Source: an uncultured delta proteobacterium (GTDB lineage: Bacteria > Desulfobacterota > WTBG01 > CAIYCZ01 > CAIRTM01). From it: a stretch of 64,000 nucleotides of DNA. This document shows, one piece after another, positions 39,939-59,267 of the stretch. The stretch lies in assembly GCA_963723235.1 (NCBI GenBank), contig CAVRPV010000006.1, positions 304,914 to 368,913 on the forward strand, written 5' to 3'. Under the pieces are notes generated by a model. The model did no database searches. It was not told the DNA's origin and worked only from the letters and a program-made list of their open reading frames with translations. The number at the start of each line of letters is the position of its first letter. Position 1 is the stretch's first letter. A program made the position numbers and the translations under genes.

Positions 39939-40146
39939 TTTTTTCCCCGCGCGCTTTTTGCACCCCCCGCCCACAACCTGCCCAAACCGGAATGCTGTGC
40001 ATACCGCGCAGGAATAAACGGTTTTTTATTTTTCATCATGCTGATTTGTGCTAAGCTCGGAGCGAAAGTGATCCGAATACAAAAACATGCGCCGGAAAGC
40101 AGCGCTGAGCATACAAACCCCTGCACGTACCCATAAAGGATTGAGC

Positions 40147-40923: not shown

Positions 40924-40967
40924 CAACCGGCGTTTATGCGCTTCTGCTGCACATGTGGCACACAACA

Positions 40968-42458: not shown

Positions 42459-43810
42459 AGCGCATAAAACAGCTATTAATTATCGACGATGAAGAAAACA
42501 TGCGGCACCTGCTGCAAACGATTCTGGAAAAAGAGGGCTATGCCGCAGCAACGGCTGAAAACGGTCGTGTCGCTTTGGAACTGCTTGACGAGCGCACGTT
42601 CGACACCATCCTGTGCGATTTGCGCATGCCGGAAATGGACGGCATGACGTTTCTAAAACATGCCCGTGATCGAAAAATTGACGCGACCATTATCGTCATG
42701 TCGGCGTATGGCACCATTGACCAGGCCCTGGAGACCATGCAGCTGGGTGCCTATGACTATATCTCAAAACCCTTCAAGCCGACCGAAATCATCCTGACCC
42801 TTAAAAAAGCCGAAGAGCGCCAAAAGCTCAGACAAGAAAATCTGCAGCTCAAAAAAGAGGTCAAGCGCACCTACAGCCGCAAGAACCTGATCGGCAAAAG
42901 CCCGCTCATGACCAATGTTTTGAGCATGATTGAAAAGGTAGCCCCTTTCAAAAGCTCGGTTCTGATTACCGGAGAATCCGGTACCGGCAAGGAGCTGGTG
43001 GCCCGGGCCATTCATTATGCCGGACCGCGCAGCTCGAACACCTTTCTGGCCATCAATTGCGGCGCAATTCCAGAAAACCTGCTTGAGAGCGAGCTTTTCG
43101 GACATCGCAGAGGTTCCTTTACAGGTGCCGTGCATGACCGCCGCGGATATTTTGAGGAGGCTGACGGAGGGACGCTGCTGCTGGATGAAATCGGTGAACT
43201 TCCCCAGAACCTGCAGGTCAAGCTCCTGCGCGCGCTGCAGGAAGAAGAGATACGCCGCGTCGGCGAGCAGCGCTGCATTTCCATTGACGTGCGCGTCATC
43301 GCCGCGACATCCCGCAACCTGCTCGAAGAGGTCGCGCGGGGCGCGTTCCGCGAGGATTTATTTTACCGCCTGCATGTGCTGCCCATACATATTGCGCCGC
43401 TGCGTGAGCGGTGCGAAGACATCCCGCTGCTTGTGGATCACTTCATACATAAGCACAACCGGGCACACCGGCTTGCAATCAGCGGCATCACCCCGGCGGC
43501 ACTCAAGGTTCTGATGGAATGCCCCTGGCCCGGAAATATCCGCGAGCTTGAAAACACGATTGAGCGCGCCATGGTGCTGAGCGACCAGGACGTACTGGAT
43601 GTGCCCCTGCCGGGCGACATGTCCACCGCAGCCGCGCCGCAACCATCGGGTGATTTATCCATAAAACGCGGAACGAAAATCCTCGAAAAAGACCTGATCA
43701 CCCGCGCACTGGAAACAACCGGCGGCAATAAAACCAAAGCAGCCCTTCTGCTTGAACTCAGTTACCCCGCCCTGCTCAGTAAAATAAATGAATACGGTCT
43801 GAAGAGCTGA
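42455..43810 (+). CDS. Sigma-54-dependent response regulator (NtrC/PilR-like)
   Basis: REC, GESGTGKE, ESELFGH..GSFTGA, LLDEIGE, WPGNIREL, Fis-type HTH. Confidence 0.93.
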   Translation: MKRIKQLLIIDDEENMRHLLQTILEKEGYAAATAENGRVALELLDERTFDTILCDLRMPEMDGMTFLKHARDRKIDATIIVMSAYGTIDQALETMQLGAYDYISKPFKPTEIILTLKKAEERQKLRQENLQLKKEVKRTYSRKNLIGKSPLMTNVLSMIEKVAPFKSSVLITGESGTGKELVARAIHYAGPRSSNTFLAINCGAIPENLLESELFGHRRGSFTGAVHDRRGYFEEADGGTLLLDEIGELPQNLQVKLLRALQEEEIRRVGEQRCISIDVRVIAATSRNLLEEVARGAFREDLFYRLHVLPIHIAPLRERCEDIPLLVDHFIHKHNRAHRLAISGITPAALKVLMECPWPGNIRELENTIERAMVLSDQDVLDVPLPGDMSTAAAPQPSGDLSIKRGTKILEKDLITRALETTGGNKTKAALLLELSYPALLSKINEYGLKS

Positions 43811-45540: not shown

Positions 45541-45774
45541 ATATTTATTTACATACTAAATAGTAATAATTAACACTTTAGATTTAAAATATTAAACTTC
45601 TTATTCATTAAAATCGAATAAAAATTAATTGTATTTTTTAGAGGCAATCTATATTTTTTTATTGATATCTATTGATAACATTGGCTTGATTTTTTAAAAA
45701 AAGAAAAAACCGCTTGAAAAAAAAAATTTATAGTCTAAATAGGTAGATAGACCAATAATACTTTTTGTTAAATA

Positions 45775-45866
45775 ATTAGTTTGAAAAAAGCCAAACCAGT
45801 CGTGAGGCTGGGACGGAAAGCCACGGGTTTTATACATTGATATAAAATAGCCGGGTTACCAAACAA
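45775..45866 (+). ncRNA. GEMM-I (c-di-GMP-I class) riboswitch aptamer
   Basis: AAG CC AAA CCAGTC GTGA GGCTGG GAC GG AAAGCC ACGGG...TAGCCGGGTTACC; G at the Vc2 G20-equivalent position. Confidence 0.9.
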
Positions 45867-45889
45867 TTGGTAGCCCGGCTATTTTTTTT
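45846..45889 (+). terminator. Riboswitch expression-platform terminator
   Basis: ATAGCCGGGTTACCAA/TTGGTAGCCCGGCTAT plus T8; overlaps the aptamer 3' strand (ON-switch geometry). Confidence 0.85.
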
Positions 45890-46419
45890 GTTTCGCGGTT
45901 TCTGCTATCGTCCTATTGGATCAGGAGGATAGAGTTTTTTATCTTTATTATTTATACTGGCTTGACTGTCGGTAGCATATAGTGAACCTCAAGCATGCTA
46001 TTGTATGCCTTGTGGTTGTATAGTGCATCACTACGTAGCAACAGTCAGTCTAAATTAACTCAAGTTCGTGACTAAGTCCAAAACCGGCAACCTTTTAATG
46101 GTTGTTCGGATCGGGTTTTTTTCTTTTTTTCTATATCCTGATGGCTATTTGGTTTTAACTCTTTACGTTTCATTTATCGGCTTATAGAGACAAAGCTTAA
46201 GAAAAAAAAGCAGCTATGTAAAAAAATATTTCCGGCGGTAAATTATGATCACAAGTTTCTTGGCTATTGCAGGGGGAAAAATATTTTTTAAACGTTCCTT
46301 TTCGCCTGTTTTCATCACCATGAAAAGGATGGGCCTGGAATATGAGGAGCAGGGAACGCATCTTAATTTTTGTTTTATGAGCAGCATTTGAATTCTGACA
46401 ATCATGAAAAGAAGAAATT

Positions 46420-46548
46420 ATGGAAGACCAGAAGAAGCGCTATGAAACACCGGCAATCATCACCCATACGGAGGAGGAAATCGCCAGCAGAATCGGGCCG
46501 GCGCACAAGGTACCCTCGGGGGGCCCTCCCGGCATTGAGTACCCGTAA
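46420..46548 (+). CDS. Putative RiPP precursor A1: MEDQKKRYETPAIITHTEEEIASRIGPAHKVPSGGPPGIEYP
   Basis: Manual translation; YxxPxI leader motif; two paralogues in the locus. Confidence 0.75.
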   Translation: MEDQKKRYETPAIITHTEEEIASRIGPAHKVPSGGPPGIEYP

Positions 46549-46604
46549 TAGCAACTGCATCTTGCAGGCTTAATAAATTTTTTACCCATTAGGAAGGGCT
46601 TTTA

Positions 46605-46799
46605 ATGGAAAAAAAACAATGGCTGCAACAATGGCTGGAGAAACGTTCCTACACGAAAGAGGATGTCCTTCACATAGCCGGAAAAAGGCTGCCGGAGACA
46701 CCAGATAGGCCATATACGGACCATGATATAGTCAAGATACTCGGCCCGACGTCCTGCGCTGAGAAACCCAGTGTGCCTTCCGGCACGCAATATCGGTAA
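46605..46799 (+). CDS. Putative RiPP precursor B1 (64 aa)
   Basis: AGGAAGG RBS; paralogue at 55915..56103; two YTxxD(I/V)xxIxG motifs. Confidence 0.7.
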   Translation: MEKKQWLQQWLEKRSYTKEDVLHIAGKRLPETPDRPYTDHDIVKILGPTSCAEKPSVPSGTQYR

Positions 46800-46937
46800 C
46801 CGCAACATTAACCGGGAGATTTTAACAAGCCCACATAGCAATGACATTTTCATACGGAGAACTCTTTATGAAAAAGATTTTTTTCTGCCACTTGTAGCAG
46901 CATTTTTAAAATGCCAAAGGAGAGGAGGTATTGCAGA

Positions 46938-47033
46938 ATGAAAGAACAGTATGAAAAGCCTAAAGTTGTAGAAATTGATTTGGAGGAATCTTTCAGTTTT
47001 GGACGGCCGCCTGTTAGCCCCATTATGCCATAA
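46938..47033 (+). CDS. Putative RiPP precursor C1: MKEQYEKPKVVEIDLEESFSFGRPPVSPIMP
   Basis: AGGAGG RBS; YEKPKV leader motif; tandem copy 177 bp downstream. Confidence 0.8.
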   Translation: MKEQYEKPKVVEIDLEESFSFGRPPVSPIMP

Positions 47034-47114
47034 AGAGCAATTTGGATGTTGGTTGCGATTAACTTTTTAAGAGTTTTAAACAGTGTTCCATTAGACAAAA
47101 GGAGGTATTGCAGA

Positions 47115-47204
47115 ATGAAAGAACAGTATGAAAAGCCTAAAGTTGTAGAAATTGACCTGGAGGAATCTTTCAGTTTTGGGCGGCCGCCTGTTAGCCCTCT
47201 TTGA
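47115..47204 (+). CDS. Putative RiPP precursor C2: MKEQYEKPKVVEIDLEESFSFGRPPVSPL
   Basis: AGGAGG RBS; differs from C1 by synonymous changes and the C-terminus only. Confidence 0.8.
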   Translation: MKEQYEKPKVVEIDLEESFSFGRPPVSPL

Positions 47205-47261
47205 TTGATTATCGTTCATGGTGATATCTCCAAAGAATTGTGTCAATACTTGCGGGTGTGA

Positions 47262-48155
47262 ATGCAGACACACGTAACGACCGGTTTTGGCGGTTATGTT
47301 GTGCGGTTTGTTTGTGAAGATGCAGGGGTAGTGGATCTTCTTGATTTGCACTTCCGTGAACACGTGACCGACGCAGAGCCGGATGTCACGCTTGCTATGA
47401 GGGTTGTTGCGCCGGGTGTGATCGCGAAGGTTGATGATCTTTCTGAATCGTACTATGCTTTTTTTGATCAGGGGACCGTCAATTTTGGCCCCAACCTGCT
47501 TGAGGGGCGCTGGGATTTCGACAGTAAGATATTTACCCTGAAGGTCAGCCGCGAACTCATGGTGCAGGAGGAGTTGTGGCTTTTTGACCGGTTTTTATGC
47601 AGGCTGTATTATACCCTGGTGATGAGGGACAGGCGCCGAAGCTCCAGGCCGTTGATTGTACATTGTGCAGGGGTGGTCCGCGATGGCAGGGGCTATATTT
47701 TCTTCGGTCCCCCGGGAAGCGGAAAAAGCACGGCAGCCGGCCTGTCCAGACACTATCATATCATGCATGATGATATGAACATTGTGACCTTGGACGGTGA
47801 CCGGGTGCAGGTTCAAGGTGTTCCCTTCAACCCGAAGCTGATCGAACGCACCAATGTCGGCGTGCCCCTGTCGATGATCTGTTCGCTGCATCAGTCAGCT
47901 GCGGTACGCCTTGAACGGGGAACACAGGATGAGTTCCTGCAGAAAGTCGTACCGGAAAATTTTCTGCCGCTGCCGCTTTTCACCAACGATCGCAAGCATG
48001 CTTTTCAGTACTTGTTGGCATGCCTCAGGGACTTGAGTCGGCAGGTACCCTATTACCGCTTGTATTTTAAAAAAGACGAAAGCTTTTGGGACCATATCGC
48101 AACAGTGGAGGTTTTGCATGGACAACATTCAGCAGATGTACATCAAAAGAATTGA
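47262..48155 (+). CDS. HPr-kinase-related P-loop protein 1
   Basis: VHCAGVVRDGRGYIFFGPPGSGKST...MHDD...GVPF. Confidence 0.8.
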   Translation: MQTHVTTGFGGYVVRFVCEDAGVVDLLDLHFREHVTDAEPDVTLAMRVVAPGVIAKVDDLSESYYAFFDQGTVNFGPNLLEGRWDFDSKIFTLKVSRELMVQEELWLFDRFLCRLYYTLVMRDRRRSSRPLIVHCAGVVRDGRGYIFFGPPGSGKSTAAGLSRHYHIMHDDMNIVTLDGDRVQVQGVPFNPKLIERTNVGVPLSMICSLHQSAAVRLERGTQDEFLQKVVPENFLPLPLFTNDRKHAFQYLLACLRDLSRQVPYYRLYFKKDESFWDHIATVEVLHGQHSADVHQKN

Positions 48156-48415
48156 AGACAATGCCGTCTGGACGAAGCTGGACAAGGGCACCATGATTAT
48201 TATGACAGCGGATATAGGAAAAGGTGCTGGACCTCAACAAGACAGCGGCCTGTCTCTGGGAAAAGAGCGATGGCTCGCAGACGGTCGGAGCGCTTGTGGA
48301 ACACCTGTGCCAGACGTATGACGTGGACGCGGAGGCCGCACTCGCTGACGTCATTGATTTTATTGAGGCTATGAAAAAGAAGAACCTGCTCGCGGTTTCA
48401 GAGGCTGCGATATAA
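48118..48415 (+). CDS. PqqD-family RiPP recognition element (frameshift near 48222)
   Basis: GGAGG RBS; MDNIQQ...MIIMTADIG joins LDLNKTAACLWEKSDGSQTVGALVEHLCQTYDVDAEAALADVIDFIEAMKKKNLL, a classic PqqD pattern. Confidence 0.85.
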
Positions 48416-48441
48416 CGCCGCGCCAAACGGAGTGTCCCTGC

Positions 48442-49587
48442 ATGAAATCACGTGTCAGTGCATGCATGATCGTTAAAGACGAGGAGGCGAACCTTGCCCG
48501 GTGCCTCCGCAGCATCCGAGGCGCAGTTGATGAAATAATCGTGGTCGACACGGGCTCCCGCGATGCAACCGTCGAAATCGCCCGATCCTTCGATGCACAT
48601 GTATACTTCTGCCCCTGGGAGGATAATTTCTCCATTCCCCGCAATGTGTCCATCGAGCATGCGCAGGGGGAGTGGATTTTCTTGATCGATGCCGATGAAG
48701 AGCTGGAAAGCGCTGCACGGGACACAATCCAAAAACTTGTATGCAACAATACCCTGCTTGGGTACTCCGTGCTCATAGAAATGCATCCGGACTTTACCCC
48801 GATGAGGAGTCTGCGTTTGTTCAGGAATATGCCTTCCTTGCGTTTTAGAGGGGTCTTTCATGAAGAGTTGACAGTACCCCGGGACAGCGCCGACAGGGTC
48901 ATGCCTGCCGACATACGGATTATTCACACACCTTTTAATCAGGAAATAACAGACAGGAAATATGAGCGCAATGTCACGCTTTTGCGCAAGCATCTGAACG
49001 AATACCCTGATGATGCGTATCAAATGCTCGATCTTGCGCGGCTATACCTGGGGAAGGATGCCGCGGCTGAGGCTGAAATACTTTTGCAGCGTGCCCGCGG
49101 GATTATTCTCGACCATACTCCATCGTACAGCAGGCAGAAGCTGGAGGTGTGCCGTTCTTTTTATTATTCGCTGCACTACGGATGTTTGTTGCAAAAAAAC
49201 AGCGATATCCGGGAGCGCCTGACAGTGTGCCGGGAAGCCATTGAGACCCTGCCGGAATGCCCCTTGTTTTATTATCATGCGGCCAACCTGTATTATGCAT
49301 TGCAACAGTATGAGGCGGCCATCGGGCATTTTGAGAAATGCATTGCATTTGGAAAGCAGCCGGCACGTGATGTGACCATTTTGTATCCCCGCGAGTGTCT
49401 CAGCAGTCTCCCTCTTGCCGGTTTGGGATATTCTTTATTCAGGGAAAAAAAATATATGCAGGCCACCCGCTATTTTAAGGCATCCCTTGCATACAAACAG
49501 GATCATGCCATTGATGTAATGTTAGCTTCGGCATCACTGCTTGCAGAAAAAGCCGAATGCACTGCCGGCAGCCTTCCGCGCCCATGA
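48442..49587 (+). CDS. GT2 glycosyltransferase with C-terminal TPRs (SunS/flagellin-GT-like architecture)
   Basis: SACMIVKDEE, DTGSRDAT, WEDNFS..RN, WIFLIDADE, FRGVFHE, then TPR-like helices. Confidence 0.88.
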   Translation: MKSRVSACMIVKDEEANLARCLRSIRGAVDEIIVVDTGSRDATVEIARSFDAHVYFCPWEDNFSIPRNVSIEHAQGEWIFLIDADEELESAARDTIQKLVCNNTLLGYSVLIEMHPDFTPMRSLRLFRNMPSLRFRGVFHEELTVPRDSADRVMPADIRIIHTPFNQEITDRKYERNVTLLRKHLNEYPDDAYQMLDLARLYLGKDAAAEAEILLQRARGIILDHTPSYSRQKLEVCRSFYYSLHYGCLLQKNSDIRERLTVCREAIETLPECPLFYYHAANLYYALQQYEAAIGHFEKCIAFGKQPARDVTILYPRECLSSLPLAGLGYSLFREKKYMQATRYFKASLAYKQDHAIDVMLASASLLAEKAECTAGSLPRP

Positions 49588-50999
49588 ATCATCATCTCCC
49601 GGTTTATTTCGGTCGGTTCGCGCTCGCTATAGTATCTCCCTCAAAATCGGTCATTGATCATCTGCGGCTATTCTTTGCCGGGTATGAATGTGGTCGGAAA
49701 GCCACTGCCACCCTGCATATTCTCACATCCAGAGATTTGCCTCCTCCCCGGGAACAGCTGTTATCCAAGCAGTGGACCGCTTTGGCAGTGCATGACAATG
49801 GGTTTGAAATAGGTCCCAATGTGATACAGGGAAGAATTCTACCGGATCAGTGTACCTTCATTATTACGGTGCATGAAGATTTGTTTTTGCCGGGACTTGC
49901 AAATGTGATCAATGCTTTTTTTTACCGTCTCTACTATACCTTGTGCGCTCTCAACAAAACTCACAGCTGCATTATCCATGGTTGCGGCGTGATGCGCGAT
50001 CAGATCGGCTATCTGTTTATCGGGCCGCATCACTCGGGGAAAACAACCATCGGACTGTTATCAGGCGCCCCCATTCTGCATGATGATCAGATGATCCTCA
50101 CGCTTGAAGGCGACACGCTTACCATGGACAGCCCGCCGCTACCGGCGCGGGATAATCTCAGGCAGCGGCCCGAAGCGCCCTGTGTACTCGAAAGGATTTT
50201 CCTTGCGGTAAAGGATGAACAGTTCTCTGTCAGGCAGCTCGCTCCGGAGCATGCGGTGGCGTGCCTTTATAATGATGTTGTGATGCCCCATACGCTTCTC
50301 TCCGTTGCTGCGAACGCGGCCCGCATGCGCAAGGCGCAGTTGTGTTTTGCCCTTCAGCGGGCAGTACCTGTGTTTGAGCTGCATTTTGACAGGCAGGGGC
50401 AATTCTGGGAACAGCTCAGCACGATGCAATGGCCTATATCGATAAATGAGCATACAATTGATACAGCCGGTGATAGGCCGAAGAGATTTGTCAGTCGTGT
50501 ATGGCTTGAGCAGTATCAGCAGTCGGGCGCCGGAAGCTTAACCATTCTCAGCGGGAGCATGGCGCCGCTGATCAATACGGGGGATCAGATTTGTGTCCGC
50601 AAAACGCCGCTTGACCGTATCCATATCGGCGACATCATTACTTTTTGGAAAGGGGGGGAATTGATTACTCATCGCGTCATACGTACATGCATCAGAGAGG
50701 GAGGAGTATGCTTTGTGGAGCGGGGTGACAAGCATCCTCATCATTCTTTCATTGATGCAGCATCGGTCATCGGCAAGGTAGCCAGGATCAATAAGGGCAG
50801 CCATAGTGTTGAGATGCACAAACTGCACTGGCAGATATTTAACCGAACTGTCGGAGTTCTGTTTTTAAGCATCTTTTTTTTACGCCTCCTGGCCCGGCGT
50901 ATTCCATTTCTTCCCCAGCAGGTTAAAGGTGGCGGCAATAAAATTTTAACTGTTCTGACGAGAATAAAAAACAAAGCTCTTAATGCTCAGTTCAGGTGA
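49584..50999 (+). CDS. HPr-kinase-related P-loop protein 2 fused to an S24/S26-family peptidase
   Basis: IHGCGVMRDQIGYLFIGPHHSGKTT...LHDD; C-terminal SGSMAPLINTGD...GDIITF...ITHRVI...RGD; ATGA overlap with the GT gene. Confidence 0.8.
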   Translation: MNHHLPVYFGRFALAIVSPSKSVIDHLRLFFAGYECGRKATATLHILTSRDLPPPREQLLSKQWTALAVHDNGFEIGPNVIQGRILPDQCTFIITVHEDLFLPGLANVINAFFYRLYYTLCALNKTHSCIIHGCGVMRDQIGYLFIGPHHSGKTTIGLLSGAPILHDDQMILTLEGDTLTMDSPPLPARDNLRQRPEAPCVLERIFLAVKDEQFSVRQLAPEHAVACLYNDVVMPHTLLSVAANAARMRKAQLCFALQRAVPVFELHFDRQGQFWEQLSTMQWPISINEHTIDTAGDRPKRFVSRVWLEQYQQSGAGSLTILSGSMAPLINTGDQICVRKTPLDRIHIGDIITFWKGGELITHRVIRTCIREGGVCFVERGDKHPHHSFIDAASVIGKVARINKGSHSVEMHKLHWQIFNRTVGVLFLSIFFLRLLARRIPFLPQQVKGGGNKILTVLTRIKNKALNAQFR

Positions 51000-51069
51000 A
51001 ACAAACGAGACTTGCAAAGCTGGCTGCATCCTGTAAAGTAATAATGAATGATGTCATCTTGAGTCTAAC

Positions 51070-51175
51070 ATGGTCCCCATAATAGAACTACAGAACATCT
51101 CTAAATATTACCCGAAAGCGGCGGGGGTATCGCGGCTTATAATCCCCAAAATTGAGGGGGGCAAAGCCCTCACCT
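51070..51175 (+). pseudogene. Truncated N-terminus of an ABC ATP-binding protein
   Basis: MVPIIELQNISKYYP...KAL then similarity is lost before Walker A. Confidence 0.45.
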
Positions 51176-51254
51176 TATGCAGGTTGTGGCCTTCACAGTT
51201 GAATAATGTCTCGCCAAAGGCCGCGCTCGCAAGGCCGATGAGCAGCTATTCAAA

Positions 51255-51395
51255 GAATGTCAGATAGGCCTCCTTGAATCGCATCTTCCGTACCTCCTGC
51301 AGCATTTCTGTCCGTTTCATGAGTCACCTCCAGCAGTGACTCTAAACCGGACAGTTCATGTGCTACAAGACCGGACAGATTATAAACTCCCAACA
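51255..51395 (-). mobile_element. IS1202/ISNCY-like IS end plus transposase 5' fragment
   Basis: Minus strand starts TGTTGG, has two CTGTCCGG repeats, then GGAGG and MKRTEMLQEVRKMRFKEAY. Confidence 0.65.
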
Positions 51396-51551
51396 CAAAG
51401 GAAAAAGCAATTGACCGCCGCACGCAAAAATCGTATAGATTGTTGGCAGTCACAACCGTTAACCAACGGCGGCTTGTAGTGTTTTAAAATCGTTTTGGCG
51501 ACATTAACTAAAAATCGAGGCGCTCTTCAAAGCACAAAAAAGTAGCCCACA

Positions 51552-52706
51552 ATGACAGCCAAGCAAACTTCAATCTACGCACTCATCGCTGGAAATCATT
51601 CTGATGGTCCTTTGAATGATGACGTACTGAAGGTCTTATATGATCACAACCTTTTACCTTATTTCTTTTCTAGTAACAGGGCATTTCCCGTTGAACTTCA
51701 GAAAACCAGACGGACTATTCTGATAAAACAGCAGCTTGTATATCAGTTGGCTTGTAGGGACTTGGTGCAAGTGGTTGAGGCTTTGGAAGCAGTCGGTGTT
51801 GAATACCGGGTGTTGAAAGGAATCGCAATTGCTCAGACCTATCCTTATCCATATGCAAGGAGCATGGGAGATCATGACATTTGTGTCCATGTTGAGAATT
51901 TTGATCAGGCAATAGTGGCTATTGCGTCATTAGGATATCAAAGGAGCGAAAGGGAAGATACAGAAAGTGACGTGGGCTTTTTCAAAGAGGGCCACCTCAA
52001 AATCGAACTTCACAGACAATTGTTCGACCATGGTCGTGTGCGTAATGGCGAGGATTTGCTGCATGAGCTTTGGGCAGATGCTTTCGAGATCATGGTAGGC
52101 AGCAAGGTTATTCTTGTTCCTCAAATAGAGACTCATTTTAAATATTTAATCATTCACATGTTGAGGCATCTGATATATACAGGAATTGGCATCCGGAATT
52201 TGATAGATATTGTTCACTTTAGTACAGTTCACGCTGTTGACTGCAAATCCTATCAAACCTATTTTGATGACTATGGCTATGGTGCCTTTTATAGAGCGAT
52301 TATCTCGATCTGTGTCTATGAATTAGGCATGAAAATAGATGATCATTCCTGGCTATATAATAAAGAGGAATTGGTGATTAGAGATTTGTCATCGTATATT
52401 CTCCAAAGTGGCGCTTTTGGTGGTAGCGATGAAGCGCTTATCAGAGAAATTTATACCCGGCTTTTGAAACCCAATCAAAAAAACCATGTGTTTATAATAA
52501 TATTGTCGTCTCTATTCCCAAGTTCAAAAGCGATCGGTGCTTGCTACAGTTATGTGACTAAATGGCCTGTGCTGCTTCCTGTAGCATGGGTACACCGATG
52601 GCTTAGGTTCACTTTAAAGACCAAACTCTATGTGATCACAAAGACTAAGAATAGCTTTGTTATAAAAGATCGCTTGATGAAGGGTTTGGGTTTGCATGAT
52701 TATTGA
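51552..52706 (+). CDS. Nucleotidyltransferase family protein (NTP_transf_5-like)
   Basis: VLKGIAIAQTYPYPYARSMGDHDICV, IELH, IHMLRH..GIGIRNLIDI, LLPVAWVHRW. Confidence 0.85.
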   Translation: MTAKQTSIYALIAGNHSDGPLNDDVLKVLYDHNLLPYFFSSNRAFPVELQKTRRTILIKQQLVYQLACRDLVQVVEALEAVGVEYRVLKGIAIAQTYPYPYARSMGDHDICVHVENFDQAIVAIASLGYQRSEREDTESDVGFFKEGHLKIELHRQLFDHGRVRNGEDLLHELWADAFEIMVGSKVILVPQIETHFKYLIIHMLRHLIYTGIGIRNLIDIVHFSTVHAVDCKSYQTYFDDYGYGAFYRAIISICVYELGMKIDDHSWLYNKEELVIRDLSSYILQSGAFGGSDEALIREIYTRLLKPNQKNHVFIIILSSLFPSSKAIGACYSYVTKWPVLLPVAWVHRWLRFTLKTKLYVITKTKNSFVIKDRLMKGLGLHDY

Positions 52707-52959
52707 AGCTTACACCGCCCCTGTTTTATAGTTTGCCCATCTCAAAACAAGTTCCGATCAAGAAGGCCGTTGCCGTTTCCCGTGGGGCAGAGGGAAACTC
52801 AGCATCACATGCAGGCATGTAGCTGTCCTTCAGGTACTGGTTTGCTGCCCTCATTGTTGTGATCTCCAGTTTTGCCAATTCGTTTGTACGCCGACGGCAC
52901 AGCTATAACTGCATGAGCGAAGGACTGAATCCGGTTCTGTCTGCTCACCTCCTGTACGT

Positions 52960-54135
52960 CTACAAATTATCTATCATGTCCCCCATCATGGATAAATGTC
53001 CGGGCTCTAATGTGTAACAATTTACATTCTCGACAATTTTTCCGACAGTCAATAACATCGAGGAAGCTTTCCCGGCAGATTCATTAAAGAAACTGGTGCC
53101 CGGAGAACGGTTGATCATATGGGTCAGGATTCGAAAGCAGGCTTCGGACTTTGGCAATTGCCGTATCTGCGGGTTCTGTTCAAAACATGGTTTTTTATCC
53201 TCAACAATTGTGACCCCGAGTATTTCACACTCATACCTGCTCCAGATATCCTGGTAAAATGCCATTAGGGATTTTTTATCAGGTGCTCTGAATCTGTATG
53301 CGGGATATCCGTGAGTCAGCACTTCATATGCCATCTCAACATCAGGATGCCGCGACAGCCTGTCAAGCAATCCCTGGTGGTGGTTCAAAAGCATGAGATC
53401 AAAATAACATCCACGACTGGCTTGCTCTGCCTGCTGCGCAACGCTTTCTACAAGCAGGATGATATTTTTGGGTGCGCATCGTTGCCCTTGACTTGCAGGG
53501 AACAAATCAGCGGGATCTGCAAAATACTTGCCTTCAAAATCAAGATAAAAAGCCTTCTGCGTATCAACCAACCCGTAAAAAGGGCTGTTCTCCTTTATGC
53601 CAACCCTTCTGGGAAAAGGGTCAAGGCAATAGTCATGTTTTCTTATAAGACAAAACTCATCGGATAAAAACTGATAGCCGCGTGACAACAGCTCAAGCAC
53701 CAAAGTTGTTTTGCCGAATCCAGATGGCGCTATGATTACCGTACCATTATTTTCCTTCGAGACAACACCCGCATGAATAAGGATGTAGTCACTGATCATC
53801 GGCATAATCCGCGTGAAAATTATCTGCTCGGCAAGGCCGCTGATTTTTCTATCGGAGGGTAAGTGCGCAGCGAACCCGTTACTCTGGATGAGCAACGGAC
53901 CATGATGAAATCGATTTTTTTTCAAAATATAGAAGGTAAGACACGTTTCCGGAAGTTTTTGACACATAAAATTTTTATACACTTGGCTAAACGCAGCAAA
54001 GCTGTCCTGACAGTCAGCGTACAGTTCGAGACCGACATTAAAAAAATTAAAAACACGCCGATACGGAGCCTGCTTTTGTATATCCTGTCGATCTGATGGA
54101 GTTAAATTAATCTGCATATCCTGTAATGCTATCAC
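52960..54135 (-). CDS. HPr-kinase-related P-loop protein 3
   Basis: LIHAGVVS...IIAPSGFGKTTLVLELLSRGYQFLSDEF...PFPR. Confidence 0.82.
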   Translation of the reverse strand: MIALQDMQINLTPSDRQDIQKQAPYRRVFNFFNVGLELYADCQDSFAAFSQVYKNFMCQKLPETCLTFYILKKNRFHHGPLLIQSNGFAAHLPSDRKISGLAEQIIFTRIMPMISDYILIHAGVVSKENNGTVIIAPSGFGKTTLVLELLSRGYQFLSDEFCLIRKHDYCLDPFPRRVGIKENSPFYGLVDTQKAFYLDFEGKYFADPADLFPASQGQRCAPKNIILLVESVAQQAEQASRGCYFDLMLLNHHQGLLDRLSRHPDVEMAYEVLTHGYPAYRFRAPDKKSLMAFYQDIWSRYECEILGVTIVEDKKPCFEQNPQIRQLPKSEACFRILTHMINRSPGTSFFNESAGKASSMLLTVGKIVENVNCYTLEPGHLSMMGDMIDNL

Positions 54136-54154
54136 ATATTGTTGATAAAATGAC

Positions 54155-54200
54155 TTAAAAAATCCATGGGATTATACTCCGTTTGTATAATCCCATGGAT
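54155..54200 (-). terminator. Intrinsic terminator
   Basis: Perfect 16-bp stem ATCCATGGGATTATAC/GTATAATCCCATGGAT with a T run on the minus strand. Confidence 0.75.
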
Positions 54201-54306
54201 AGGCATGAAACTTATTTTTTTTGCATCAGTCTATAAGCATATATCCTGACACACTATACTACACTACACGAATCTTCCCCTCTACCAGAGGCACGTCTAC
54301 CACCGA

Positions 54307-54412
54307 TCAGGGCAGTTCAATGCCGCGGGGATTCTCTTACAGTAAAACCCGATGCAGGGCACCGCATCATAAATGCTGCTGCGATAATTGGCAGAATAAT
54401 AATCTTACGCAT
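54307..54412 (-). pseudogene. Internally deleted duplicate of the secreted protein gene
   Basis: MRKIIILPIIAAAFMMRCPASGFT matches the N-terminus of 54674..55846; joined out of frame to ENPRGIELP*, matching its C-terminus KNPIGIELD*. Confidence 0.7.
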
Positions 54413-54480
54413 AGTATGTCCTCGTTATAAGATTGGTATGGCTTTCGATAAACCCGTGAAAATATCAGGTTACTAGAGCT

Positions 54481-54609
54481 TTACGGGTACTCAATGCCAG
54501 CAGGGCCTCCCGAGGTTACCGTATGTGCCGGCCCGATTATGCTGGCGATTTCCTCCTCCGTATAGGTTATGATGGCTGGCGTTTCATAGCGCTTCTTCTG
54601 GTCTTCCAT
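54481..54609 (-). CDS. Putative RiPP precursor A3: MEDQKKRYETPAIITYTEEEIASIIGPAHTVTSGGPAGIEYP
   Basis: Manual translation; AAGGAGGAG RBS. Confidence 0.8.
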   Translation of the reverse strand: MEDQKKRYETPAIITYTEEEIASIIGPAHTVTSGGPAGIEYP

Positions 54610-54673
54610 AACTCCTCCTTTGAAAAAGATATGTTTATACAGTGTTGTAAAAACCTCACCATAACTATTGCCA

Positions 54674-55846
54674 TCAATCTAATTCAATGCCGATGGGATT
54701 CTTGATCTTCGTCTGTTCTTCTGCTGTTACTGTCTTCTGGCTTCGAGCTTTGTTTTTACGGGGTGGTTTGTTATCCTTATCTATGCGATACTTGAAATAC
54801 ATCGCCCAATTACCGTGGAATTTTTTGAAGCGCTTACCGGCACCCCAGGCAGTCTGCTCATCGCAGATTTTCTGCTCGCAGGGAAGCGGCACAGGTATAA
54901 TCACGGGCTGGGCGGGCAGGCCCTGGACGTCAAACGGCTGCAATACAACGCCAACAAACTCCGTGCAGCCCGGCTCATAAAAAAAACCGTATTCTTCGGC
55001 GCCAGCGAGGATTTCAGCCACCTGGCAGCGTGAATACGGGCCCAGACTCAGGTTGCTGTTCTCATCATCAATCAGGGTCCAGATAGCCCTTTGAACCGAA
55101 CCATACGTATAGACCGGAAGATCAGGGTTGCATTGTGTCGGCTTGCCGACAAACTGCTGATTCAAAATCCAGTTGATCTTGTCGAGATTCCCCGGGAAAT
55201 CAACCAGACCATCCGGAAGCGTTGCATAGCTAGAGAAGACATTTGCATTGTACTGCACTCCTTCCGTTATACCAATCGACGTTGAAAGGCACCATCCGTC
55301 ATGGGTGCCCGTAAGCAGATCATCAGCATCGGCAACATCAATTGCGGGGAGATACGCCGGGCCATCGAGATAGGGATCGTTCGTGGTCATCGTTGCTTCT
55401 GCGGGAAGCGTGCCAGCAAAAAGAGCAAGATCAGGATCCTCATACCCGCAGATAGACCCCACAACAGCGTGTGCCGCAATATAGACACACTTAGTGCGCG
55501 AAGACCAACGCAATGGAATTGTATACATGTGCTCGGTTGCGCAGTCGAGCTCATCCTGGAATTCAAACTTTTCGGGTATGGGGTGGAAGAATAGCTGCGG
55601 TATTAACCGCGGGCTGCATTCGACAGCAAGGTGCGTCTCGCGCAAACACCAACCAGAATCAGTGATCACATACTTCACGTACATGTTCGTGTCATCATTC
55701 CAGACACGGACTTCACCGACTGTGATGTGCTGGCCTGCGATCAATGGAGTGACAAACGGGGAGGCTTCTGTTGCAGTAAAGCCCGATGCAGGGCACAGCA
55801 TCATAAAAACTGCTGCTACAATTGGCAGAAAAATAATCTTACGCAT
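54674..55846 (-). CDS. Secreted Cys-rich protein with a thioester-domain-like insert
   Basis: Signal peptide; LIAGQ..VGEVRVWND..WCLRETHL domain; insert with GWCLS, KINWILN, VQRAIW, AQPVII. Confidence 0.75.
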   Translation of the reverse strand: MRKIIFLPIVAAVFMMLCPASGFTATEASPFVTPLIAGQHITVGEVRVWNDDTNMYVKYVITDSGWCLRETHLAVECSPRLIPQLFFHPIPEKFEFQDELDCATEHMYTIPLRWSSRTKCVYIAAHAVVGSICGYEDPDLALFAGTLPAEATMTTNDPYLDGPAYLPAIDVADADDLLTGTHDGWCLSTSIGITEGVQYNANVFSSYATLPDGLVDFPGNLDKINWILNQQFVGKPTQCNPDLPVYTYGSVQRAIWTLIDDENSNLSLGPYSRCQVAEILAGAEEYGFFYEPGCTEFVGVVLQPFDVQGLPAQPVIIPVPLPCEQKICDEQTAWGAGKRFKKFHGNWAMYFKYRIDKDNKPPRKNKARSQKTVTAEEQTKIKNPIGIELD

Positions 55847-55914
55847 ATTATGTTTTCCTTATAAAATTGTCAGTGACATATTGACTTGTTAGAATCTCCC
55901 GGTTAATGCTGAGA

Positions 55915-56103
55915 TTACGGAGATTGAGTGCCTGAAGGCCCACTGGATGTCGCAGCGCAAGGCGTCGGGCCGAGTATCTTGCCTATATCCTCTTTCATGC
56001 TATCAGGTTCAAAGTATGACCTGTTACCGGCTATTTTGAGGATATCCTCTTTCGTGTAGGACCTTTTTTCCAGCCATTGTTGCACCCATTGTTTGTTGTC
56101 CAT
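55915..56103 (-). CDS. Putative RiPP precursor B2 (62 aa)
   Basis: MDNKQWVQQWLEKRSYTKEDILKIAG...KEDIGKILGPTPCAATSSGPSGTQSP; paralogue of B1. Confidence 0.7.
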   Translation of the reverse strand: MDNKQWVQQWLEKRSYTKEDILKIAGNRSYFEPDSMKEDIGKILGPTPCAATSSGPSGTQSP

Positions 56104-56159
56104 AAAAAGCCCTTTCTAAATGGTGAAATATTCATTACATATGCAAAATACAGTTGCCA

Positions 56160-56294
56160 TTACGGATGCTTAATGCGGCGAGGGTGAGGGCCGCCCGAGG
56201 TACAGGTAAGTGCCGGCCCGATTATGCTGGCGATATCCTCCTCCGTATAGGTGATGATTGCTGGCGTTTCATAGCGCTTCTTCTGGTCTTCCAT
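56160..56294 (-). CDS. Putative RiPP precursor A2: MEDQKKRYETPAIITYTEEDIASIIGPALTCTSGGPHPRRIKHP
   Basis: Manual translation; AAGGAGGAG RBS. Confidence 0.8.
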   Translation of the reverse strand: MEDQKKRYETPAIITYTEEDIASIIGPALTCTSGGPHPRRIKHP

Positions 56295-56830
56295 AACTCC
56301 TCCTTTACATGATTGTTAGAATTAAAATGCTGGACATAAAACAAAAATAAAGATGCGTTCCCTGTTCCACTTATCTCAGGCCCCTCCTTTACATGGCAAT
56401 GGAAACAGTCGAAAATTGCCGTTTAAAAAATTTTTTCCTCTGCAATAGCCAAGAAACTCGTAATCATAATTTACCGCCGGAAATATTTTTTTTCGTATCT
56501 GCATTTTTTGCTTAACCTTTGTTTCTATAATCCGATAAATAAAACGTACAGGGTGAAAATTAAACAGCCATCAGTCTATATAAAAAAAGAAAAAGAACCT
56601 CATTCGGACAACCATTACAAGGTTGCCGGGTTTTAGATTTAATAACGGATTTGAGTTAGCTTAGACTGACTGTTGTTTCAGTGATGCACAATACAACCCC
56701 GAAGCATATAATCGCATGCTTCGGGTTCACTAAATGCCGCCACAGTCAATACAGTACAAATAATAAGAGAACATAAAAAGCCAGACGCTATCGCACTGAT
56801 GCCATAGACCGATAGCAGAAACCGTGAAAC

Positions 56831-56940
56831 AAAAAAAACAGCCGTACTGCCAAGTTCAACTTTGGCAGCCCGGCTGTTTTTTTTAAAAACCCTTGGCTTT
56901 CCGCGCTATCCCAAAGGATAGGTTGGCTTTTTCAGTTTGA
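56831..56940 (-). ncRNA. Variant GEMM-I riboswitch with overlapping terminator
   Basis: Minus strand AAG CC AAC CTATCC TTTG GGATAG CGC GG AAAGCC AAGGG...CAGCCGGGCTGCC, then TTGGCAGTACGGCTG-T8. Confidence 0.75.
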
Positions 56941-57458
56941 ACAAAAAGTATGTTTTAACCTTTGTCTACTAGTTTAATTTTAGCATCTATTCTTCTGAAT
57001 ACAATTATTATTTTATGTTTGCATACGAATTGATTAAAATTTGATGGGGACTTTGACGTTTATTAACAATATTTTCTTTATTTTACAATCAAAAACGATA
57101 CGATTATAATGGTTTTGTAAATACAGCCTATATTTTAATAATAACTATCATTATAAATAGATTTAGTATTTTTTTATACCAGGATAGCCTCTCAAGCACA
57201 CCTCCAGCACAGGATTTACATGGTGGTCTATTACTGCGGTTATAAAGGTATCAGGTTTGGCGCTCGGCCAGTAAATTTTAAAGAATAATGGCTGCGGCAA
57301 GCCCGTCAATTTTGGCGGGGTCTACTTTGAAGTTGTAAAGCGCTAATTCGCGCATACGCTCGCAGGCTTCTGCGCTTGAGAACGCTTCGTCCTGCTGAAA
57401 GAGCGGCAAAGAGCAAGGGCTTCTTCCAATTGTGTGCTGAAGGTCTCGATCCGGCACT

Positions 57459-59267
57459 TCACGCTGACTGGCTAATTACGCGAGACATTGCGCGAAACGT
57501 CTCCGATGAATCCATCAGTTCGGCATACGTGCCCTTCGCAATGATGTGCCCTGCTTCCATCAAGTAAATCATGTCGCAGTCTTTAACCGTGGTGATCCTG
57601 TGAGCGATCATGATGATCGTCTTGCGTTTCGCCAGGGCCCGTATGCTGTCCATGACAGCCTCTTCGGTTATGCCGTCAAGCGCGCTGGTGGCCTCATCAA
57701 GCACAAGCACGTCCGGATCATGATAGAGCGCGCGCGCGATGCCGACCCTTTGGCGCTGCCCGCCGCTGAGGCGCACGCCACGTTCGCCAATCAAGGTATT
57801 GTAACCTGAAGGCATATCTTCTTCAATAAATTCGGCAATGTTTGCGACCCGGGCAGCGTGCATAATACGATCCATGTCGATATGCTCATCGGGTATACCG
57901 AAAGCGATATTGCGGGCAACCGTATCATCGCTGAGATAAATGTGCTGGGGAACATATCCCAGGTTGCGCTGCCAGGAGGGGCGGTTGTTTTCATCAACGG
58001 TTACACCGTCCACAACGATGCTTCCCGCCCGGGGTGCGAGCAGACCGATAATGATGTCAATCAGGGTCGTTTTTCCCGAACCGGTGGAGCCAACGAAGCC
58101 GATCGTTGTATTGGCCTGGATTTCAAGGCTGAGATCGCTGATTATTGATTCATCGCGACCCGGGTAACAAAAAAAAACATCCTGCAGGCGCAAAGACTTT
58201 TTTAATAAAAGAGGTTTGACATTAGCGGCCTCAAAAGTATTTTCAAAGCCGGCCGTCTTGACAAAATCAGCGTGCATAACATCAAGGGTTGCGGCATTGT
58301 AGCGCAGGGTGGCGATATCGGAGAAAATTGTTTGCAGGGCCGGCATGATCCGCCTAGCGGCAAATACGAACACGGCGAGCACAGGCAACAACTGCGCAAG
58401 ACCCTCTTTATGCGCCAGGAAGTACAGCACAATACAGAGAATTCCCCCGAACGCAACAACCTCCAGAACGTATGCGGGCATAAGGGCCAAAATGCTGCTT
58501 TTTGAAGCGCAGCGGGTATAGCTGTCGCAGCTTTTTACAAAACGGCTCAGGAAGTAGTGCTCCCGGCCAAGGACTTTCAAGTCCTTGATGCCGCTCATGG
58601 CCTCATGTGAAAGCGTGAAACGGTTGAGGTTGGCCTTGAGGCGTTTTTTGCCCCAGGTGGCAAGCCGGGTCCGAATAAACAGATAGAAACCCCCGTATAC
58701 GCAGCCCAGAATCAACACGGTGCCCACGGACAGCCATACGTTGACCGCAAGCAGGAGGACCAGCATAAACAGTGCGGAAATTGATTTTTCAACAACCGAG
58801 ATGCAAGGCCCTAGAATGCCGCGTATGACCGTTGAGGCCTCGTTGAGAATATTGTAGCCGAGCTCGGCGGTATTGCGGTTGAGAAAAAAAATGTAGGGCT
58901 GTGCGAGATAGCGCTCGAGAAGACGCCGTGAGAGAGACTGTTCGCTGCTGAATGTGAATTTGATCTGCGCCCAGGCAAACAATGCCCGGAAGAGGTTATT
59001 AGCAATCAATAGTCCAAGCATACCTGTTCCGAGGAACATAAGGAACCGATTCGCGCTTTCAAAGCCAAGACTCGTGTAGGCCAGTTTTAACCAACGATTG
59101 GTGTCGATAATTTCAGGGTTGGCCACAACTGCGATAAACGGCATGATCGACACAACGCCGACGACATCAAATACAGCTGTCACGACCGAACCCGCGCAGA
59201 GCAGATATACCTGCAACCGCTCTCGGGGAGTGAGAAGCACGAACAGTTTAGGGAGAATTTTTCTCAT
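57459..59267 (-). CDS. ABC exporter, fused TMD-NBD (MsbA/PglK-like)
   Basis: N-terminal TM helices, GSTGSGKTT, GYVPQ, LSGGQRQR, LVLDEATSALD, IAHR. Confidence 0.92.
   Translation of the reverse strand: MRKILPKLFVLLTPRERLQVYLLCAGSVVTAVFDVVGVVSIMPFIAVVANPEIIDTNRWLKLAYTSLGFESANRFLMFLGTGMLGLLIANNLFRALFAWAQIKFTFSSEQSLSRRLLERYLAQPYIFFLNRNTAELGYNILNEASTVIRGILGPCISVVEKSISALFMLVLLLAVNVWLSVGTVLILGCVYGGFYLFIRTRLATWGKKRLKANLNRFTLSHEAMSGIKDLKVLGREHYFLSRFVKSCDSYTRCASKSSILALMPAYVLEVVAFGGILCIVLYFLAHKEGLAQLLPVLAVFVFAARRIMPALQTIFSDIATLRYNAATLDVMHADFVKTAGFENTFEAANVKPLLLKKSLRLQDVFFCYPGRDESIISDLSLEIQANTTIGFVGSTGSGKTTLIDIIIGLLAPRAGSIVVDGVTVDENNRPSWQRNLGYVPQHIYLSDDTVARNIAFGIPDEHIDMDRIMHAARVANIAEFIEEDMPSGYNTLIGERGVRLSGGQRQRVGIARALYHDPDVLVLDEATSALDGITEEAVMDSIRALAKRKTIIMIAHRITTVKDCDMIYLMEAGHIIAKGTYAELMDSSETFRAMSRVISQSA

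Follow-up and report, generated by a model that had tools for sequence, protein, structure and literature searches.

The closest described counterparts of the locus studied here are the linear polyphosphorylated peptides (LPP) of Paenibacillus alginolyticus, which are encoded by the genes lppA-K-B-S-D-N (Popov et al., Nat Commun 2026, PMC13381572). The locus itself spans 45.7-57.0 kb of a stretch of 64,000 nucleotides (nt), hereafter the window (contig CAVRPV010000006.1, positions 304,914 to 368,913, assembly GCA_963723235.1), from an uncultured delta proteobacterium whose metagenome-derived assembly comprises 2.82 Mb and is 83% complete. In those parts of the LPP article on which we draw, the core genes are given as a SipW-like signal peptidase I, a discrete recognition element (RRE) for ribosomally made, post-translationally modified peptides (RiPPs), an HprK kinase, a nucleotidyltransferase (NTP transferase) together with an MsbA-like pump, without a cyclase. 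The LPP precursors follow the pattern YxxPxVLxHQxIxFET|xxS and are cut after Thr at -1. Their kinase was shown experimentally to transfer several phosphates onto Ser3; their SipW-like peptidase LppS depends on the RRE, acts poorly on unphosphorylated precursor and needs S29, H68 and D93; and the NTP transferase was inactive in the authors' host. The same parts of the article note a co-location with capsule loci, speculate on a role in biofilms, describe the final product and its function as still to be found, and state that LPPs are restricted to Bacillota. It was the only paper returned by our literature search on linear polyphosphorylated peptides or SipW RiPP leader peptidases.

We consider it probable, though well short of certain, that the window carries, in a Thermodesulfobacteriota genome, an LPP-like composite island of two inverted arms, each led by an ON riboswitch for cyclic di-GMP (c-di-GMP), which would give rise to short phospho(glyco)peptides. 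Compared with LPP clusters as described, the locus holds all core genes, namely a SipW-like peptidase, an RRE, HprK-like kinases, a PF14907 NTP transferase as well as an MsbA-like pump, and likewise no cyclase. Its precursors pepA and pepC bear YxxPx[V/I] leaders, though only pepA also has a Thr at -1 and a Ser at +3; its closest solved RRE is LppB, and the Ser/His/Asp motifs that LppS needs are kept in its peptidase. In contrast to LPPs, the cores comprise 4-18 instead of 45 residues, and the leader past YxxP departs from the published logo. Furthermore, one of two gene cassettes (here the pepC cassette) has two kinases and a glycosyltransferase of the GT2-TPR type, while its conserved core includes neither NTP transferase nor pump; one subclade has its kinase joined to the peptidase in a single protein; a C25 peptidase occurs in the other (pepA) cassette; and the island is under riboswitch control. 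An earlier first-pass annotation, made from these letters alone and without database searches, did not recognise a characterised class, a view overtaken by the publication, in May 2026, of a family with the same core genes. Its reading of the products as linear, cyclase-less, RRE-bound peptides that would be phosphorylated, decorated, cut by an S26 peptidase and exported under cyclic-dinucleotide control is nevertheless supported by gene content, synteny and the LPP precedent.

Other described systems share parts of this inventory. Lasso peptide clusters of the paeninodin and pseudomycoidin type, so far as the source at hand covers them, combine an RRE, an HprK-like kinase acting on a precursor Ser and a PF14907 tailoring transferase. 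However, no macrolactam cyclase or B2 protease lies near the window locus, in which leader removal is assigned to a serine signal-peptidase-like enzyme. The glycocin glycosyltransferases SunS and ThuS, as well as GmaR, resemble the window's enzyme in having a GT2 catalytic domain followed by TPR-like repeats; yet the latter falls below the SunS cut-off, the precursors are not helix-loop-helix disulfide peptides, and RRE, kinase and peptidase genes form its context. SynChlorMet (ScmC/ScmD) and HprK-related kinase A/B cassettes contain HprK-like and PqqD-like proteins, with a presumed role in peptide maturation. This pair is found in the window as well, with ScmC as best match of the kinase kin1 and HprK_rel_A of kin3, but the scores remain low (ScmC 32.4 vs 125 bits, ScmD 22.7 vs 100) and the window contains no radical SAM enzyme, whereas a SynChlorMet cassette has two of the radical SAM/SPASM kind. 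Nothing naming 'HprK-related kinase' or 'SynChlorMet' was found in the literature searched, whose yield on HPr kinase, PqqD, RiPP and glycosyltransferase was a lasso survey, a related search returning lasso and ruminococcin work. Finally, both riboswitches resemble known GEMM-I elements in passing the RF01051 model and in having a terminator that overlaps each aptamer, but here a RiPP-like cluster is under control. The main features, with lengths in amino acids (aa) and support from open reading frames (ORFs) or hidden Markov models (HMMs), are:

45781..45864, plus strand: c-di-GMP-I (GEMM-I) aptamer of the plus arm (RF03167 66.5 bits, E 4.2e-14; RF01051 70.2 bits)
45844..45885, plus strand: intrinsic terminator, 5' arm overlapping the 3' side of this aptamer (19-pair stem, then T run; dominant hairpin of the fold, z = -5.44)
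46420..46548, plus strand: pepA1, 42 aa, YETP leader, tail VPSGGPPGIEYP (ORF list, homologues, codon-position bias)
46605..46799, plus strand: pepB1, doubtful putative precursor of 64 aa without YxxP (ORF list)
46938..47033, plus strand: pepC1, 31 aa, YEKP...DLEESFSFG followed by RPPVSPIMP, GGAGG Shine-Dalgarno sequence (ORF list, alignment)
47115..47204, plus strand: pepC2, 29 aa, tail RPPVSPL (97% direct repeat)
47262..48155, plus strand: kin1, HprK-like P-loop kinase, 297 aa (ScmC 5.8e-8, HprK_rel_A 4.4e-7; orthologues in kept synteny)
48118..48415, plus strand: RRE of the PqqD family, interrupted near 48215 by a frameshift of one base (Pfam PqqD, PF05402, 1.4e-15 on the C-terminal part)
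48442..49587, plus strand: GT2 + TPR peptide/protein glycosyltransferase, SunS/GmaR-like (Glycos_transf_2 7.5e-19 plus TPR)
49557..50999, plus strand: kin2, fused to a SipW-like/archaeal-type signal peptidase I with a C-terminal hydrophobic helix, 480 aa (HMM, motifs, model)
51552..52706, plus strand: PF14907 nucleotidyltransferase, LppN-type (NTP_transf_5 8.8e-34)
52960..54135, minus strand: kin3, 391 aa, the HprK-like kinase that belongs to the pepA-type cassette (HprK_rel_A 4.7e-17, Hpr_kinase_C 3.2e-4)
54481..54609, minus strand: pepA2, 42 aa, AGGAGG Shine-Dalgarno sequence (ORF list, homologue clusters)
55915..56103, minus strand: pepB2, doubtful putative precursor of 62 aa (ORF list)
56160..56294, minus strand: pepA3, 44 aa, AGGAGG Shine-Dalgarno sequence (ORF list)
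56830..56885, minus strand: hairpin of the minus-arm terminator, in overlap with the 3' side of the aptamer (folding 56820-56940 gives z = -4.89)
56860..56936, minus strand: c-di-GMP-I aptamer of the minus arm (RF03167 46.6 bits, below the gathering score of 59; RF01051 45.5 bits)

The plus arm runs, in order, from the GEMM-I riboswitch through pepA1, pepB1, pepC1, pepC2, kin1, the PqqD RRE, GT2-TPR, kin2-S26 and a remnant of an ATP-binding cassette (ABC) ATPase to the PF14907 nucleotidyltransferase; converging on it, the minus arm holds riboswitch, pepA3, pepB2, a 390-aa protein, pepA2 and kin3. These items were confirmed by the ORF list and by HMM scans against Pfam and NCBIfam. Both arms together form an inverted repeat of about 1 kb with 79-89% identity, which covers riboswitch, 5' region, pepA and pepB. 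Horizontal acquisition of the island is suggested by its G+C content of 33-50%, compared to 52-60% in the flanks, and by its borders, with tRNA-Val and tRNA-Asp genes on one side and the remnant of an integrase core on the opposite one.

Every item of the first-pass inventory was recovered, among them seven short ORFs in three paralogous families, all at the positions given there, three HprK-type kinases, the GT2-TPR protein, the nucleotidyltransferase and the leading riboswitch, which turned out to be one of two. No asparagine-synthetase-like cyclase, B2 protease, radical SAM, YcaO or LanM protein was detected in the locus by the Pfam and NCBIfam scans, in line with the same source. Some details needed revision. 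The PqqD gene placed at 48118 does match its family, but is frameshifted; the S24/S26 peptidase exists, but as a domain fused to kin2; and the genes described as one cluster are indeed co-located, but belong to two cassettes on inverted, duplicated arms.

The precursors comprise three copies of pepA, two of pepB and two of pepC, and the proposal that all seven ORFs encode precursors holds for pepA and pepC only. Judged from their codon positions, both are real coding genes, because leader differences pile up on third positions: 165 of 255 in pepC (55/35/165 by codon position; seven sequences from several genomes) and 681 of 1067 in pepA (227/159/681; 11 sequences from several genomes). In addition, the protein collection contains 14 pepA and 18 pepC clusters. 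An alignment of 20 pepC sequences revealed Y5, E6, P8, E12 and D14-G22 (DLEESFSFG) as invariant and, at the C-terminus, a nearly invariant Ser-Pro 1-3 residues from the end, while the stretch between them is variable. The more distant pepC of locus L059 reads ESFNFG, with Ser-Thr or Ser-Leu at the tail. The pepA sequences read YExPx[IV]ITY[ST]EE..IGPAxT and then xxS; of the 12 that derive from loci, 10 have Thr at -1 and 9 have Ser at +3, and all 12 full-length metagenome clusters have both. Short cores are conserved, for example xTSGGPxGxEY/F and ..PP[V/I]SP... Genomic context points in the same direction. Homologues of pepC lie directly 5' of kin1 orthologues in genomes G009 (two copies), G018 and G029, in a Thermodesulfovibrionia metagenome-assembled genome (MAG) and on three metagenome contigs, and pepA homologues lie 5' of kin3 orthologues in seven of eight fetched loci plus a second locus of the window's own genome. 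As a genuine precursor gene, pepB is doubtful. Its two copies differ by 12/11/18 across codon positions, with 7 synonymous and 22 non-synonymous codon changes; it was seen only in the window's genus, where the L041 copy has no ATG, GTG or TTG 5' of the conserved N-terminus; and it carries no YxxP motif. Two internal YTxxDIxxIxGP segments of pepB look like duplicated pieces of the pepA leader.

Recognition of the leaders would fall to the PqqD-family RRE, which is intact as a single ORF of about 98-116 aa in four homologues (L017, L018, L020, L022). The best solved-structure match of an intact homologue is LppB (9x8z, E 3.7e-4), followed by TfuB1 at 0.25. A structure prediction of the RRE-leader pair, as the first-pass annotation had suggested, gave a score of 0.69 for the G009 RRE with its own pepC and at best 0.02 for three controls; this mark was attained by 58 of 80 solved complexes and, among mismatched pairs, by 2 of 110. 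At least 96% of contacts are common to the runs, the predicted local distance difference test (pLDDT) value of the partner is at least 61, and the predicted contacts involve pepC residues 1-13 and 15, Y5 and P8 among them. Since RRE-leader complexes have already been solved, the prediction shows likeness rather than binding or proof.

The three kinases are supported to different degrees by profiles, paralogy and fold. While kin1 and kin3 give weak HMM matches, kin2 is a paralogue of kin1 (27% identity) whose modelled kinase domain reaches a pLDDT of about 90 and aligns with phosphoenolpyruvate (PEP) carboxykinase at Z 12.7 and with HprK at up to Z 9.2. Against HPr kinases, the kin2 model yielded Z 8.8-9.2 at a root-mean-square deviation of 3.2-4.1 over 121-125 aligned residues. 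Foldseek listed PEP carboxykinases first and no HprK among its matches listed, and it was the broader structure search that gave HprK at Z of about 9. The two kinases of the pepC cassette are active-looking, and the P-loop Lys and the HDD motif do not vary among 18 kin2 sequences. The kin1 subfamily is rare, with 12 representatives at E 1e-30 in 1.84 billion sequences, and the superfamily numbers 2724 at E 1e-3. Most kin2 homologues are labelled Pfam PF27840.1 in the protein collection, so a curated family for the kin2-type kinase may already exist.

The peptidase occupies residues 317-412 of the 480-aa kin2 protein and matches the archaeal-type signal peptidase model sigpep_I_arch (TIGR02228) at 58.3 bits vs a cut-off of 51.85, and also the SipW model (1e-9). 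Its Ser (SGSMAP), His (THRV) and Asp (GD) motifs are kept; an N-terminal membrane helix is missing and a C-terminal hydrophobic one is present. Among six aligned S26 homologues, five keep the three motifs, and the sixth (L045 4261-4830) has Cys in place of the catalytic Ser. The L045 precursor tail, for its part, contains two Cys and no Ser. In the kin2 model, the peptidase part (residues 288-414) has a pLDDT below 50 because only 3 of the 18 alignment rows carry this region, and the peptidase fold is therefore assigned from HMMs and motifs. The fusion is found in the window, P0002-P0004, L046 and L047, and separate genes occur in most loci, with the separate peptidase of G009 bearing an extra DUF192 domain. 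Such a fusion fits the LPP precedent as published, since the LPP peptidase cuts unphosphorylated precursor poorly. Regarding the other tailoring enzymes, the best NCBIfam match of the GT2-TPR protein is the SunS family (E 1.7e-26), although with 93 bits it stays below the cut-off of 350, and among PDB entries it matches GmaR (6.7e-29), the ThuS-like 7msk (6e-19) and SunS (6e-17). A homologue of the PF14907 transferase lies 3' of kinase, C25 and S26 genes in L045.

Judged by gene order and occurrence elsewhere, the locus is a juxtaposition of two cassettes with different distributions and not one operon or system. The search for conserved synteny by tblastn in related genomes, likewise proposed at first pass, found a fixed order in the pepC cassette (pepC, kin1, PqqD, GT2-TPR, kin2, S26), collinear in G009, G029, G018, the Thermodesulfovibrionia MAG and metagenome contigs. 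When the remaining 41 genomes of this class are compared, strong kin1 matches (E 4e-78 or better) turn up in three, and in neither of the two same-genus genomes. Across 16 metagenome loci, a glycosyltransferase match lies directly upstream of kin2 in 12, three of the remaining four having less than 175 nt upstream, and an S26 match lies 3' of kin2 in 14, the other two contigs stopping at kin2. No pepA, pepB, kin3, 390-aa protein or PF14907 was found in these other pepC-type genome and metagenome loci. The relatives are labelled Thermodesulfobacteriota, Thermodesulfovibrionia, 'Proteobacteria' and, in one case, Actinomycetes MAG. Matches to kin3, by contrast, occur in 14 of 42 genomes of the class, and the usual kin3 cassette consists of PqqD, pepA, the kinase, a Peptidase_C25/PorU-like protein of about 1085 aa and an S26 peptidase of 182 aa. 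G001, a genome from the same genus, has the order pepB, pepA, 390-aa protein and kin3. Thus, the window combines a pepC-type cassette with a reduced pepA-type module lacking an RRE and a peptidase of its own.

Several observations concern the pepA-type cassettes themselves. The C25/PorU-like protein of about 1000-1090 aa between kinase and S26 was verified by Pfam in L037 (10925-14182) and L045 (4854-7844), and a gingipain/sortase-like protease is unusual in a RiPP-like cassette. The window's own genome (G000) has a second pepA-type locus on contig C10 (339987-347837) with PqqD, a pepA-like ORF, a kinase split in two ORFs, C25 and S26, in which the C25 protein (340670-343936) was assigned by size only. 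Beside the C10 PqqD lies a 485-aa ORF whose N-terminus resembles, by eye only, a B12-binding radical SAM enzyme. In the L045 variant, a PF14907 transferase is accompanied by two radical SAM enzymes, one of which carries SPASM and PqqD domains. Consequently, the expectation that homologous loci would be free of lasso cyclases and radical SAM enzymes held, in the loci scanned, for the cyclases only, and the wider family in part borders on an enzyme class already described.

Control by c-di-GMP is suggested by the RNA structures at the head of both arms. Both aptamers pass RF01051 (gathering score 35), and the genome gives no GEMM-I match besides these two. The clan competition of cmscan named the 'GGC' variant model (RF03167), but the canonical RF01051 scores as high or, for the plus arm, higher. 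Relying on G20 and A47, which we take to be the canonical c-di-GMP aptamer nucleotides, and on the A after the first hairpin, we read both aptamers as canonical c-di-GMP type and not as cyclic GMP-AMP (cGAMP) or 'GGC' variants. After each aptamer comes the terminator, a long hairpin with a T run. Because its 5' arm is the 3' side of the aptamer, ligand binding should block termination, and both riboswitches are predicted ON switches. When the copies are compared, the first aptamer hairpin and the terminator show compensatory changes. Among candidate papers, judged by title and the start of the abstract, none on a c-di-GMP riboswitch-RiPP link was found. Besides the riboswitch, the 5' region comprises a 556-nt, 87%-conserved spacer between riboswitch terminator and pepA1, and in both arms a second hairpin with a T run (46080-46130; 56583-56633), about 220 nt past the riboswitch terminator. 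In G009, a gene for a PilZ-domain protein, a c-di-GMP receptor type, is divergent from the pepC operon (L017 15575-16288); a riboswitch was not found there.

From gene content, synteny and RNA structures, a pathway can be envisioned whose chemistry is inferred throughout. At high c-di-GMP the aptamer would form, block the overlapping terminator and thereby allow transcription of precursor and enzyme genes. The PqqD-type RRE would bind the N-terminal YxxPx[I/V] of pepA and pepC, and the HprK-like kinases would phosphorylate Ser just past the leader, probably repeatedly. The Ser at +3, past the conserved GPAxT, would serve as acceptor in pepA; for pepC, candidate acceptors are the Ser that is invariant within ESF[S/N]FG and a near-invariant one located 1-3 residues from the C-terminus. 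Within the pepC cassette, the GT2-TPR enzyme may put a sugar on Ser, Thr or Cys, or on the phosphate. The SipW-like peptidase, being fused to kin2, would sit on the cytoplasmic side with the C-terminal helix as anchor and cut the leader off the modified, RRE-presented precursor, which would release a short Pro/Ser/Gly-rich phospho(glyco)peptide of 7-18 residues. The phosphate may receive a further decoration from the PF14907 enzyme, and the product would leave the cell through the MsbA-like ABC pump. With c-di-GMP in control, a role in sessile or biofilm life is suggested.

A number of points weigh against this interpretation. First, the LPP article, in the parts considered here, restricts the family to Bacillota, and the window and its relatives lie outside this phylum, although non-Bacillota matches may already stand in the paper's supplementary taxon list. 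Likeness to LppK, LppS and LppN is by description only and not by direct sequence comparison. Second, every HprK-family HMM score is far under its curated cut-off (for HprK_rel_A 62 vs 200 bits, for ScmC as given above), and kin3 matches a solved HprK sequence in the PDB with E 0.2 only. Third, pepC has YxxP and lacks the T-1/S+3 pattern, for which reason its cleavage and modification sites are guesses. Fourth, NTP transferase and ABC pump were found in none of five genome and none of 16 metagenome pepC-type loci other than the window's, many of these contigs being short. Fifth, no c-di-GMP riboswitch was found at related loci (0/4 sources, 0/8, 0/15), many contigs ending before the upstream region, so the c-di-GMP link may be peculiar to the window's island. 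Sixth, the window's RRE gene is frameshifted, an allele which a contig of run X4 carries as well, and the genome's only other PqqD sits in the C10 locus whose kinase is split.

The last point leads to the alternative that survives best, in our view unlikely but deserving attention: the island could be a decaying, non-functional copy with recognisable genes and no product in the window's organism. The frameshift hits the only RRE of the locus, and three-frame comparison assigns the N-terminal beta-strand part and the 63-aa helical part to two successive frames. There are also remnants of an ABC ATPase (65 aa) and of the 390-aa protein (31 aa), the split kinase in C10, structural variants in population contigs (a 1513-nt deletion and a tandem extra copy), and pepB, for which no purifying selection was seen. 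However, the remaining ORFs are all intact, strong Shine-Dalgarno sequences are retained at the pepA and pepC copies, and the pairing of aptamers and terminators is retained in both copies by compensatory changes. Moreover, a contig of run X2 (41 differences in 1245 nt, a strain about 97% identical) has one base fewer exactly at 48215 and an intact RRE. The X4 allele is not independent evidence, because X4 may be the source sample, and in a metagenome-derived, incomplete assembly single-base indels may be errors. Thus the frameshift is either decay or an assembly error, the contigs fit both, and the proposed pathway may be impaired in the window's genome.

Less probable still is a second alternative, in which the peptides, rather than being natural products secreted in free form, are short carriers that are phospho-glycosylated and then fixed to the cell surface or matrix as c-di-GMP-induced parts of envelope or biofilm; in the canonical pepA cassette, the secreted PorU-like C25 peptidase would attach the peptide. 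The c-di-GMP ON riboswitches would suit such a role, as would the C25/PorU-like protein of 1085 aa between kinase and S26 in pepA-type cassettes, the 390-aa signal-like protein kept between pepA and kin3 in the genus, the absence of a nearby exporter from most pepC-type loci, and GmaR, a flagellin glycosyltransferase, as best solved match of the GT2-TPR enzyme. The LPP authors, too, point to capsule loci and biofilms (PMC13381572). On the other hand, the C25 gene is absent from the window, and peptides of this sort are not known to have any attachment chemistry. This alternative overlaps the phosphopeptide interpretation rather than excluding it.

It is very improbable that the small ORFs are incidental and that kinases and glycosyltransferase act on a larger protein, for example the 390-aa protein. 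GmaR is indeed a protein glycosyltransferase and HprK proper phosphorylates a protein, but besides the enzymes pepC is the sole gene kept in the cassette across phyla, its leader is invariant with third-position-biased substitutions, and the 390-aa protein is missing from all pepC-type loci. Least probable of all is a lasso peptide cluster with cyclase and B2 protease elsewhere or missed: YxxP leaders, PqqD, HprK-like kinase and PF14907 are typical of paeninodin-type clusters according to the LPP article (PMC13381572), yet no macrolactam cyclase or B2 protease was detected in the cluster by Pfam, NCBIfam and a genome-wide profile search, the Asn_synthase family occurs at five places in the genome and none on the window's contig, the sole PF13471 match (34441-35019) is a generic transglutaminase (PF01841, 1.2e-23) beside ABC genes, no cyclase appeared in Pfam scans of the L017, L037 and L045 flanks or among the window proteins searched for by tblastn at related loci, and the tails are too short and without Asp/Glu at positions 7-9 after a small first residue.

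If the phosphopeptide interpretation is correct, one might tentatively, and with more doubt than conviction, propose that a SipW-like peptidase, an HprK-like kinase and an RRE, taken together, mark out a superfamily of pathways to short phospho(glyco)peptides which reaches far past Bacillota to anaerobic bacteria of sediments, and whose products serve here as c-di-GMP-induced components or signals of the sessile state. Its accessory architectures would include dual kinases with a peptide glycosyltransferase, a PorU-like C25 peptidase, and radical SAM enzymes. The window would then offer the first known case of a RiPP pathway coupled directly to a riboswitch for a cyclic dinucleotide, and the LPP family, so far without function, would gain a testable biological role. 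Already under the phosphopeptide interpretation, LPP-type enzymatic logic exists in at least two further phyla, a peptide-type glycosyltransferase can replace the nucleotidyltransferase, and the peptidase-kinase fusion implies coupled phosphorylation and cleavage on the cytoplasmic side. Expression of LPP-like genes can also be tied to c-di-GMP, which turns the biofilm speculation of the LPP authors into a testable hypothesis. As the conserved cores are very short, their synthesis and mass-spectrometric detection should be easy.

Besides precursors and tailoring enzymes, island and border contain the following features:

51070..51267, plus strand: N-terminal remnant of an ABC ATPase, 65 aa (aligned by tblastn with the beginning of an intact L058 ABC ATPase)
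54317..54412, minus strand: 31-aa remnant of the 390-aa protein's N-terminus, direct repeat D1 (ORF list, repeat analysis)
54674..55846, minus strand: 390-aa protein, family not recognised, signal-like N-terminal segment (between pepA and kin3 also in the same-genus G001)
57459..59267, minus strand: MsbA/PglK-like ABC exporter, 602 aa (ABC_tran and ABC_membrane)

The exporter, whose best NCBIfam models are PglK, HepA and MsbA with every score below cut-off, lies just upstream of the minus-arm riboswitch and outside the riboswitch-controlled unit. An intact ABC ATPase is located 3' of the S26 gene in the metagenome locus L058 (1814-2566); together with the 65-aa remnant it suggests that the ancestral pepC cassette may have had its own ABC transporter. 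The 390-aa protein shares 60% identity with its L041 counterpart. It has no Pfam or NCBIfam match, its Atlas clusters are all labelled 'hypothetical protein', and its Atlas recognition score of 2192 lies under the mark of 2300. A relationship to C25 was rejected, as no similarity to the C25 protein was found, and its AlphaFold model, built from a 2-row alignment, is unusable with a pLDDT of 29.3.

Population contigs differ from the window in the minus arm. In one X5 contig, position 54318 is joined to 55832, and the 1513 nt between direct repeats, with pepA2 and most of the 390-aa gene, are deleted. One X1 contig jumps back from 56328 to 55863, which amounts to a tandem extra copy of the pepA3-pepB2 segment. 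On the upstream side of the island, 40087-43810 encodes a prepilin peptidase (A24) and a HAMP histidine kinase, both matched by Pfam, as well as a 451-aa ORF that, judged from its translation, looks like a sigma-54-type response regulator. These are ordinary neighbours, cut off from the island by the two tRNA genes.

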